In this document: one piece after another, positions 3,329 to 4,457 of the stretch | Layout of the letters: each line of letters starts with the position of its first letter | Position numbering within the stretch: the first letter of the stretch is position 1 | Origin: Acidobacteriota bacterium | GTDB lineage: Bacteria > Acidobacteriota > Thermoanaerobaculia > Multivoradales > UBA5704 | Length of the DNA: 64,000 nucleotides | NCBI GenBank assembly: GCA_040005235.1 | Contig: JBDTZG010000002.1 | Location: forward strand, 96,001 to 160,000 | Direction: 5' to 3' | The notes under the pieces: model-generated | The model's database searches: none | What the model saw: the letters and a program-made list of their open reading frames with translations, nothing else | Told to the model about the DNA's origin: nothing | Position numbers and translations under genes: made by a program

Positions 3329-3745
3329 TCAGGCCTCGGCGTTCACGGACTGCCCTTCACCGCCCTTGGCTTCCTGCTGTGCCATGGCCTCCGCCAGGGC
3401 CTTCGCGATGGTCTTCTTCGACGGACCTCTCTTGCGCCGCTCCACAGGCCGAATACCCAGCATCAACAGCTCCGGGTTCCTGCGCCCTAGAAAGGCTTGG
3501 AGGTGGGACTTCAAACGGATCGCATCCTCCCCGGTCTTCTCGACGAGGTTTCGCCGCTGGATGGTCAGGGTGTGGGCCTGGCCTTCCAGCTCCTGAATCC
3601 GGTCCGCCATTCTGACGATTTCAACGGTCGCGGCCTTGATTTCGCCATGAAGCTCCTGGGCTGCCGGCACTTGGCCGATCAACGGCTCCGCGTTGGCGCA
3701 CAGGGTGACCCACCGCTGGGTCCTTTCCGCAAATGAGTTGGGCAT
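3329..3745 (-). CDS. Hypothetical helical/coiled-coil protein with basic C-terminal patch
   Basis: AAGGAGG RBS, ATG at 3745, 138 aa [12 protein letters not shown]...[15 protein letters not shown]; the longer ORF call to 4237 runs through a repeat array. Confidence 0.7.
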
Positions 3746-3825
3746 TACGCCCTCCTTTCGAGAACGTGCGGCCCGGAATGGGCTCGCACGAGTGAAACCG
3801 AGATTCCTACGCCGCGAACCCGTTT

Positions 3826-4086
3826 CCCCGTACAGGGATGACGATTCCTCCAGAGAGGATCGCTTTGCCCTACGCCGGGAACCGTTTCCCGGCGGCGAGA
3901 TAACGGTGCCCCTTGCGGGGATTGGCTTGCCCTGCTCGGGGTAATGGATTCCCCATACAGGGAAAGCATTTCCCTCTACGGGGCAGACGGTCCCGCTTGA
4001 GGTTAGCCGTTGCCCTCTGCGGGGAAACGCTTGCCCTGACCCAGGTGAACGTCTCCTCAGATAGGTCGACGTTTCCCTATTCAGGG
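3826..4086. repeat. Array of 13 CC(C/T)-N6-GGG-type mini-palindromes with 20-21 bp period
   Basis: Units start at 3826, 3847, 3868, 3888, 3909, 3930, 3951, 3972, 3992, 4013, 4034, 4055 and 4075; several have a degenerate right half. Confidence 0.8.
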
Positions 4087-4457
4087 CGAAGTTTCGCCGA
4101 CTTCTTTGGTGGCCTATTGTCATATCAATCTCGTATATGGCGTTCGTTCTTTCCCTCAAGCCATCTTTCGTGGCTCCGAACTCTGATTTCAAGTCTGAAT
4201 CAAGAATGCCTGTCAAGTCAATAGGGCGCGGCGGCAACGTCCCGATCTCCGTGCGGAAGAAGGTGAGTTAGGGAGACCTCCCCGAACGTCCGCGTTGCTG
4301 AGCGGTTTCGGGGGATGGAAATAAGCGTGGGCAACGGGCCGCGCAAATTCAGGGCGCGTTAATATGCGCGCTCCAGAATAACTGCGGACTTGCGTTCGCT
4401 GATCTCCTCGTCGCTGATCAGAATGGCCTGGGAAGGCACAAGGGATAGAATGGCATC

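Follow-up and report, generated by a model that had tools for sequence, protein, structure and literature searches.

An array of helically phased palindromic half-sites and the gene beside it, which encodes a 138-amino-acid (aa) protein, are one copy of a gene-plus-array unit that is multiplied in the genome of an Acidobacteriota bacterium (NCBI GenBank assembly GCA_040005235.1). Both lie in a 64,000-nucleotide (nt) stretch of contig JBDTZG010000002.1, positions 96,001 to 160,000, which is called the window below. The gene occupies 3329..3745 of the window on the minus strand, and the array, which is assigned to neither strand, lies upstream of it at 3805..4090. The array is specifically tied to the adjacent small helical protein. 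That protein belongs to an unannotated, lineage-restricted family of small helical proteins found in one taxonomic family of soil Acidobacteria, and arrays and protein family co-occur at the level of whole genomes. The array is most likely the cognate nucleic-acid partner of the protein, as double-stranded DNA; what we infer from these observations is that protein and array bind each other, that the partner is DNA and not RNA, that the gene is autoregulated, and that the protein acts as a molecular ruler. The explanation that we tentatively favor, at a little short of an even chance, is that the protein forms a coiled-coil dimer that binds DNA, regulates its own gene, and has additional targets at similar arrays.

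The array and its link to the gene

An earlier note, made from the letters of this DNA, had described 13 CCC-N6-GGG units with near-constant spacing and cores that all differ. We re-found the same spacings from unit to unit (21, 21, 20, 21, 21, 21, 21, 20, 21, 21, 21, and 20 base pairs [bp]), and the 13 N6 cores are indeed distinct (13/13). The units span 3826-4086 and start at 3826, 3847, 3868, 3888, 3909, 3930, 3951, 3972, 3992, 4013, 4034, 4055, and 4075; eight are exact, and five (those at 3847, 3888, 3992, 4034, and 4055) carry one or two mismatches. Additional degenerate units lie beside these 13 clear 20-21 bp units, at 3805 and 4096. Exact CCC-N6-GGG sites occur 30 times in the window, 8 of them inside these 260 bp. 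When 3800-4100 was shuffled 5,000 times with dinucleotides preserved, exact sites averaged 0.48 per shuffle and never exceeded 5. The longest chain of sites with at most one mismatch phased at 20-22 bp had no more than 4 members in the shuffles versus 9 in the array. By column counts, about 10 of the 21 positions in the unit are conserved, with C-G-T-T-T/G before CCC and A-rich letters after GGG. Because so few positions are conserved, Tandem Repeats Finder does not report the array at 3805-4090. Between the variable N6 cores there is a second register, the palindrome GGGAA-N4/5-TTCCC, and TTCCC and GGGAA half-sites thus alternate in orientation every 9-11 bp, one per helical turn. The array is unchanged in the assembled contigs of two probable source runs; in one relative's contig, at a depth of only 3.5, it is 63 bp (three units) longer.

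The bacterium's own genome (G000) holds 27 genes of the family. Taking as an upstream array any best self-similarity of at least 0.50 within 700 bp upstream, we found one with a period of 20-22 or 41-42 bp at 17 of the 27 (16 by the scan, to which C132, whose array is cut by a contig end, was added). By comparison, 13 of 1,000 random 700-bp windows reached 0.50, an enrichment of approximately 40-fold upstream of family genes. Of the 27 downstream regions, one reached the threshold, at an unrelated 33-bp lag. Over the own and related genomes together, 35 of 66 family genes (one locus counted twice) have an array within 900 bp upstream, including 6 of the 15 from other genera; in other subfamilies, the arrays lie 500-860 bp from the gene. 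No other gene family recurs next to arrays. The earlier note had read the array not as a peptide repeat but as sites phased at two helical turns that may work with the adjacent protein. With periodic arrays present upstream of paralogs and orthologs alike, this much of the interpretation holds, whereas its comparison with a centromere is left without a partner nucleoside triphosphatase (NTPase) gene, and its two options, a DNA platform or operator and RNA hairpins, are both still candidates.

TCCC-N6-GGGA cores are common to the query array, the array of a 60%-identical paralog (C8:55812), and loci L019, L020, L022, L023, L024, and L042. In query-type orthologs from six other genomes, the half-sites are kept while the linkers, the N6 cores, and the number of units vary. 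At identities of 60% and above, subfamilies have half-sites in common but differ in spacers and N6. Distant subfamilies have palindromes of their own, for example of the GGAA-N-TTCC, GGGAAG-N-CTTCCC, or GAGCTGG-C-CCAG type. Orthologs in the C99 subfamily share a promoter-like element and the two ends of the leader, and what varies from one to the next is the array in between. Clustering arrays by shared 9-mers gave nine clusters with at least two members. Exactly one gene-linked copy was present in five of these (sizes 17, 6, 6, 3, and 2), none in the other four, and two in no cluster.

The protein family and its arrays across genomes

The 27 homologs found for the protein are 117-146 aa long. 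All 22 that were aligned share the same start methionine, indicating that the array is not translated, and the paralog alignment contains zero indels over residues 3-100 despite 23-28% identity. The AlphaFold monomer model (pLDDT 84.7) is all-helical, with a helix at residues 5-23, a long helix at 27-86, and a short conserved G-F-x-N-P...G-I-R-P turn; the C-terminal tail is basic and poorly ordered, and there is no N-terminal strand. In two-copy complex predictions, the ipSAE was 0.73 versus 0.33 for the best control, with at least 98% contact agreement among runs and a partner pLDDT of at least 89. The predicted homodimer is antiparallel, with residue 53 placed on 53/57. This score expresses model confidence and is not a measurement; in calibration, 20 of 30 proteins with structures solved as pairs attained this mark, as did 1 of 23 solved as single chains. 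The predictions support an antiparallel coiled-coil homodimer in which each end of a rod of ∼60 residues carries one conserved motif and a basic tail. Of the earlier description, a coiled-coil protein with an RRKRG patch starting 80 bp from the array, the basic patch was borne out, a helical fold and a coiled-coil dimer are predicted, and the distance from the ATG at 3745 to the first clear unit is 81 bp. The query subfamily also has a nearly invariant acidic tail, S-E-G-x-S-V-x-A-E-A (residues 128-138; 3329-3360), which follows a variable Ala/Lys-rich linker. Other subfamilies do not have this tail, which may serve in docking or tag the protein for degradation.

A profile of 18 paralogs plus homologs was searched against 1.84 billion cluster representatives (50% identity) and matched 1,070 at an E value of ≤0.001 and 360 at ≤1e-10. 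Nearly all of the 1,070 are 110-150 aa long, and the few longer forms carry no known domain. One longer form, P0142, has an N-terminal extension with a 7-residue period that is the upstream array read through by the gene caller. Sampling 24 other genomes of this taxonomic family, we found the protein family in 23 (4-45 matches each); it was found in none of 16 genomes from other families of the same order and in none of 200 further genomes of the phylum, for which fewer candidates were scored per genome. The source of one homolog gives a Thermoanaerobaculia bacterium as its origin. Pfam searches with 20 diverse members and the longest forms returned no informative domain or fusion, the ESM Atlas matched only unnamed Acidobacteriota clusters, and Rfam searched at E values up to 1 gave only chance matches. 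Searches of the literature turned up no published description of the protein family or of the arrays. The earlier note's remark that it did not recognize the unit as a described system agrees with these searches of the literature, Pfam, NCBIfam, PHROGs, PADLOC, and Rfam.

For the genome-wide scan, an array was called wherever self-identity over 126 bp reached 62% at a lag between 10 and 60, a threshold below which the query array itself scores. G000 has 120 such arrays, 105 of them with a period of 20-22 or 40-43 bp, or ∼17 arrays per megabase (Mb). Approximately 85% have no adjoining family gene. The period is not a multiple of three in 32 of the 105; 13 of the 105 overlap an open reading frame (ORF) call, and the others are intergenic. 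For 63 intergenic arrays, both neighbors were called (with a crude gene caller): 17 and 15 lie between codirectional genes, 18 between convergent genes, and 13 between divergent genes. Arrays of one type have no common flanking sequence. Long open frames through arrays were considered as genes and rejected, as they look like compositional junk that lacks the GC3 pattern of coding sequence; wherever this was checked, the array immediately precedes an ordinary gene. Several contigs start or end inside arrays (C4:1-418, C78:1-274, C79:1-208, C124:1-215, C127:1-283, and C111:121472-121784). Given that assemblies break at arrays, their true number and length are probably higher.

Counting arrays with periods of 20-22 or 40-43 bp in sampled DNA of seven genomes, we found that array density follows the number of family genes (Spearman 0.96, n = 7 genomes that are kin and so not independent). 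G000 has 27 genes and 105 arrays in 6.22 Mb; G013 has 45 genes and 9 arrays in 320 kilobases (kb); G014, 16 genes and 7 arrays in 400 kb; and G009, 7 genes and 3 arrays in 400 kb. No family genes and no arrays were found in G016 (same taxonomic family, 94% complete, 680 kb scanned), in G031 (another taxonomic family, 400 kb), or in G025 (another taxonomic family, 80 kb). At the density of G000, zero arrays in 680 kb of G016 would have a probability of ∼1e-5. Of the 19 arrays that the samples of G009, G013, and G014 contain, two or three adjoin a family gene. At the level of single types, six of the seven other genomes of the genus have the 17-member array type (type-1) together with the C127-type protein (identity of 62% or more), and the seventh, G005 (85% complete), has neither. 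Beyond the genus, no C127-type protein was found and type-1 arrays gave only weak matches. G002 has almost none of the 20-bp array type or of the C99-type protein.

What the pairing may do

On the minus strand, the locus reads promoter-like element, array, leader hairpin, Shine-Dalgarno sequence, 138-codon gene, and terminator-like hairpin. The promoter-like element (4192..4221, minus strand) lies upstream of the array and points to the gene; it comprises TTGACT (4221-4216), an 18-bp spacer, and CAGACT (4197-4192) and is a match to consensus only. TTGAC(A/T)-N17/18-xAxxCT is also found upstream of the arrays of paralogs C111 and C99 and of loci L022, L024, and L061-L067. A generic sigma-70 scan of 3250-4450 found no promoter. 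The element is contained in a low-GC spacer (4091..4225, 45% GC versus 66% for the genome) between the array and the neighboring toxin-antitoxin genes. Between array and gene, a conserved leader hairpin (3766..3789, minus strand) with a GC-rich stem of 9-10 bp and the 5-nt loop ATTCC ends 6 nt 5' of the Shine-Dalgarno stretch GAAAGGAGGG (3750..3759, minus strand); the 55-nt leader RNA folds at -24.1 kcal/mol. Other subfamilies have such a hairpin as well, with the loop ATTYC and covarying stems: a strict rule finds it in 12 of the 63 leaders and in 27 of 3,150 shuffles, and by eye it is visible in about 25. In the query leader, the hairpin is followed by GTTCTCG with no clear T-run, and the terminator scan did not report it. 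The whole-leader RNA fold (z = -7) was not counted as evidence because long-range pairing between units is expected of any run of self-complementary units.

We propose, as the tentatively favored explanation, that the two ends of the dimer, each with its G-F-x-N-P...G-I-R-P motif and basic tail, would read TTCCC/GGGAA half-sites. Half-sites placed once per helical turn in alternating orientation would make up the 21-bp unit, and many dimers could sit side by side on one face of the helix. Because the array lies between the promoter-like element and the leader hairpin with its ribosome-binding site, its occupancy would set expression of the protein's own gene, whether as a roadblock or as an operator. 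Further targets would lie wherever else the genome has arrays with these half-sites, such as the orphan array at C56:65268-65415, and the conserved length of the rod could explain why otherwise unrelated arrays share a period of 20-21 or 40-42 bp. Several observations speak for DNA as the partner. The array cores are two-fold symmetric, several of them without room for a hairpin loop, and the half-sites lie on one helical face. The antisense strand folds more stably in 23 of 35 arrays and the sense strand in 12, and the family promoter motif points into the array in only 3 of 109 arrays. If the pairing is true, it defines a large unnamed family (the 1,070 cluster representatives at 50% identity) and explains a bacterial "satellite" DNA that breaks assemblies, at ∼17 arrays per Mb, in these soil Acidobacteria. 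It would also supply dozens of natural orthogonal protein/site pairs of fixed two-turn geometry, useful for studies of cooperative coating, bridging, and roadblocking.

Precedents for such an arrangement come from plasmids. The parC/ParR system is a plasmid centromere of phased repeats with a small centromere-binding protein, and theta plasmids carry iterons, direct repeats spaced ∼21-22 bp apart beside the Rep gene, with a lower-GC stretch adjoining. Like iterons, the array has ∼21-bp repeats next to the gene of its candidate binder and a low-GC stretch beside it; unlike Rep, an initiator with tandem winged-helix domains, the protein is 138 aa long with no Rep/winged-helix match above threshold, and the unit occurs in dozens of copies per chromosome. 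In plasmid F, the sopC site of the sopC/SopB system is made up of 12 units of 43 bp that each contain an inverted repeat of 16 bp (PMC3177203). Both sopC/SopB and parC/ParR resemble the locus in having tandem units of whole helical turns with inverted repeats beside the gene of a small protein, and cooperative coating and autoregulation would match. Unlike such centromeres, the unit comes with 27 genes and ∼105 arrays per chromosome. No ParA, ParM, or TubZ appeared in the ORF lists around 14 copies, in which not every neighbor was family-scanned; the scanned neighbors in the window were HicA/HicB, AbiEii, an Rv0078B-like antitoxin, or of no family. The protein itself had no family match to ParB or to ribbon-helix-helix or helix-turn-helix folds, its model lacks the N-terminal strand, and its structural matches were generic helical ones.

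A number of results weigh against a DNA-binding, self-regulating dimer. The protein has no recognizable DNA-binding domain. No Pfam family scored above cutoff for the query protein, the best being the SSO1393-like winged-helix family (20.3 bits versus a cutoff of 26, E = 6.6e-4), and NCBIfam, PHROGs, and PADLOC gave nothing above chance. Foldseek found no match in the PDB at an E value of 0.001 or better, and the wide structural search with VIA-align returned only generic long-helix matches (Z ≤ 7.2). No upstream array was called at 10 of the 27 own paralogs, and ortholog L021 has an AT-rich stretch instead, with no array within the available 130 bp. Genome G006 has five matches to the 20-bp array type and no detected C99-type protein. 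That 18 of the 63 arrays lie between convergent genes indicates that arrays as a class are not promoter elements. In the query, C111, and the C99 group, the sole promoter-like element lies upstream of the array, a point in favor of RNA as the partner. Finally, motifs shared between genes and arrays may reflect simple joint duplication.

A wider version of the idea, which we regard as unlikely, treats these proteins as rulers: coiled-coil dimers that would read their own palindromic half-sites and be paired with co-restricted arrays of 21-bp period. Such proteins might either seed and amplify their own arrays, as a nonenzymatic counterpart of REPIN-RAYT systems, or bridge distant chromosomal sites as two-headed rods, with arrays of one type as an orthogonal address code.

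The main rival, of similar, low probability, is an RNA system like type III toxin-antitoxin loci or a sponge, in which repeat RNA would bind, neutralize, or titrate the protein. The array would be transcribed from the upstream promoter, and the leader hairpin, as a leaky terminator, would determine how much repeat RNA is made relative to mRNA. Type III loci (ToxIN, CptIN, and TenpIN) carry tandem nucleotide repeats upstream of a protein gene, and as described by Blower et al. (2012; PMC3401426), promoter, tandem repeats, short palindromic hairpin, and small-protein gene follow in the same order as here (4221-4192, 3805-4090, 3766-3789, and from 3745, all read toward the gene on one strand). 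The setting among HicA, HicB, and AbiEii/Rv0078B-type toxin-antitoxin genes fits, as does the recurrence of the leader hairpin with covarying stems, often followed by GTTTTC-like T-rich runs, and many arrays have units of 40-43 bp, near the 36-nt units of ToxI. The protein, however, is predicted to be an all-helical coiled coil and not a ToxN/Kid-like endoribonuclease, with no ToxN, CptN, or TenpN match in Pfam or PADLOC, and it is not known to be toxic. In type III systems, the palindrome before the gene terminates transcription, and near-identical units each fold into an inhibitory pseudoknot. The units here are 20-21 bp long, in at least 13 copies, and the query's are alike at only about 10 of 21 positions, unlike some paralog arrays that are 93-96% regular. 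Arrays in other subfamilies are remote from the gene, most arrays have no family gene next to them at all, and the sense strand has no folding advantage; the cores that leave no room for a loop and the rarity of inward promoter motifs count against this reading too. Orphan arrays as small-RNA genes with the family promoter were rejected, given the 3 of 109 that have the motif. If the RNA reading is true, no type III-like toxin-antitoxin family before this one would have had a protein of a kind other than ToxN.

Less probable still are self-propagating or tolerated repeats of a REP/BIME or REPIN-like kind. Seeding and tandem growth would need the family proteins, the gene-linked copy would be the master and the orphans its offspring, and no regulatory role would be required. 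In REPIN-RAYT systems and REP/BIME clusters (PMC3116915, PMC3337134, and bioRxiv 10.1101/2022.05.22.493013), a protein gene is flanked by its own repeat type, of which many copies are dispersed. The likeness extends to a gene-linked copy with dispersed intergenic copies of the same type, vertical inheritance in one lineage, and several orthogonal pairs per genome. A single gene-linked copy in an array type, beside as many as 16 orphans, fits this reading. The scaling of array density with gene number down to zero where the family is missing, the occurrence of arrays in every intergenic orientation without common flanks, the contig breaks, and the three extra units in the low-depth relative's contig all point the same way. 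On the other side, the protein has no nuclease, transposase, or recombinase signature in Pfam, NCBIfam, PHROGs, or the wide structural search, and it is no tyrosine (HUH) transposase such as the single-copy gene of REPIN-RAYT systems encodes, and there is no known mechanism by which a helical rod could copy DNA. The arrays are long, unidirectional, and tandem with a 21-bp period, unlike the single hairpins or doublets of those systems, and their half-sites are kept while the rest of the unit drifts, pointing to selection on binding.

That there is no specific partnership, and that slippage-prone intergenic DNA (for example, spacers that tune promoter distance or curvature) accumulated upstream of these genes by chance, we consider very unlikely. 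The paralogs and the ortholog that lack arrays would fit, as would the abundance of arrays elsewhere in the genome, but the ∼40-fold enrichment, the subfamily-specific motifs, and the genome-level co-occurrence, including the double absence in G016, do not. A translated heptad peptide repeat can be dismissed almost entirely: a 302-codon frame (3329-4237) does cross the array into the gene, staying open because three 20-bp steps cancel out, and some database gene calls show 7-aa-period N-terminal extensions like that of P0142, but the 20-bp steps shift the frame, the aligned homologs start downstream of the array at one methionine after a strong ribosome-binding site, the extensions are compositional junk, and the 32 periods that are not multiples of three do not fit, all in agreement with the earlier note's view that this is not a peptide repeat.

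Surroundings of the locus and other arrays

The genes flanking the locus encode HicA, HicB, an AbiEii-type nucleotidyltransferase, and an Rv0078B-like antitoxin. The region 1145-6455 is a dense toxin-antitoxin island with two HicA genes, a HicB-like gene, and the AbiEii-type nucleotidyltransferase with its Rv0078B-like antitoxin. Just downstream of the family gene, an 80-aa ORF (3042-3284) repeats the C-terminal third of a 180-aa ORF 2 kb away (5457-5999). The common stretch ends in ...VNPSSPN.ATSIVK, and the shorter ORF has the appearance of a truncated duplicate; Pfam matches neither of the two. Helix-turn-helix-like genes of 164-192 aa follow the family gene on the same strand at L004:2320-2865, L011:4600-5178, and L013:2377-2871, a weak signal. 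As a candidate part of the unit, such a downstream gene was rejected, being present at only 3 of 14 paralog loci and without a Pfam match above cutoff. Directly after the stop codon lies a terminator-like GC-rich hairpin (3286..3316, minus strand; fold of -35 kcal/mol). It is multicopy, its arm occurring 15 times in the genome, and contig depth spikes at 3282-3328; it resembles a dispersed terminator or a REP-like hairpin.

The window contains a second array at 33731..33978, assigned to neither strand, with 12.4 units of 20 bp, a different motif, and no adjoining family gene. It has a glycosyltransferase-like region on one side and a peptide deformylase-like gene on the other and belongs to a 13-member type with zero gene-linked copies, although paralog C99 has degenerate copies of the motif upstream. 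By eye, the block that follows it (34000-34170) holds reverse-complement copies of the same 20-bp motif. Elsewhere in the genome, three arrays with 20/40-bp periods (C128:9304-9642, C135:30755-31000, and C21:75585-75790) lie just downstream of homologous genes that read toward them. As judged from the flanks only, these genes end in an ...IREE...AAKK-like tail, which suggests a second array-associated gene family. The scan for CCC-N6-GGG clusters also hit two CRISPR arrays, C45:1-580 and C68:66760-68060, whose 32-nt repeat contains CCCCCTGCGCGGGGG.

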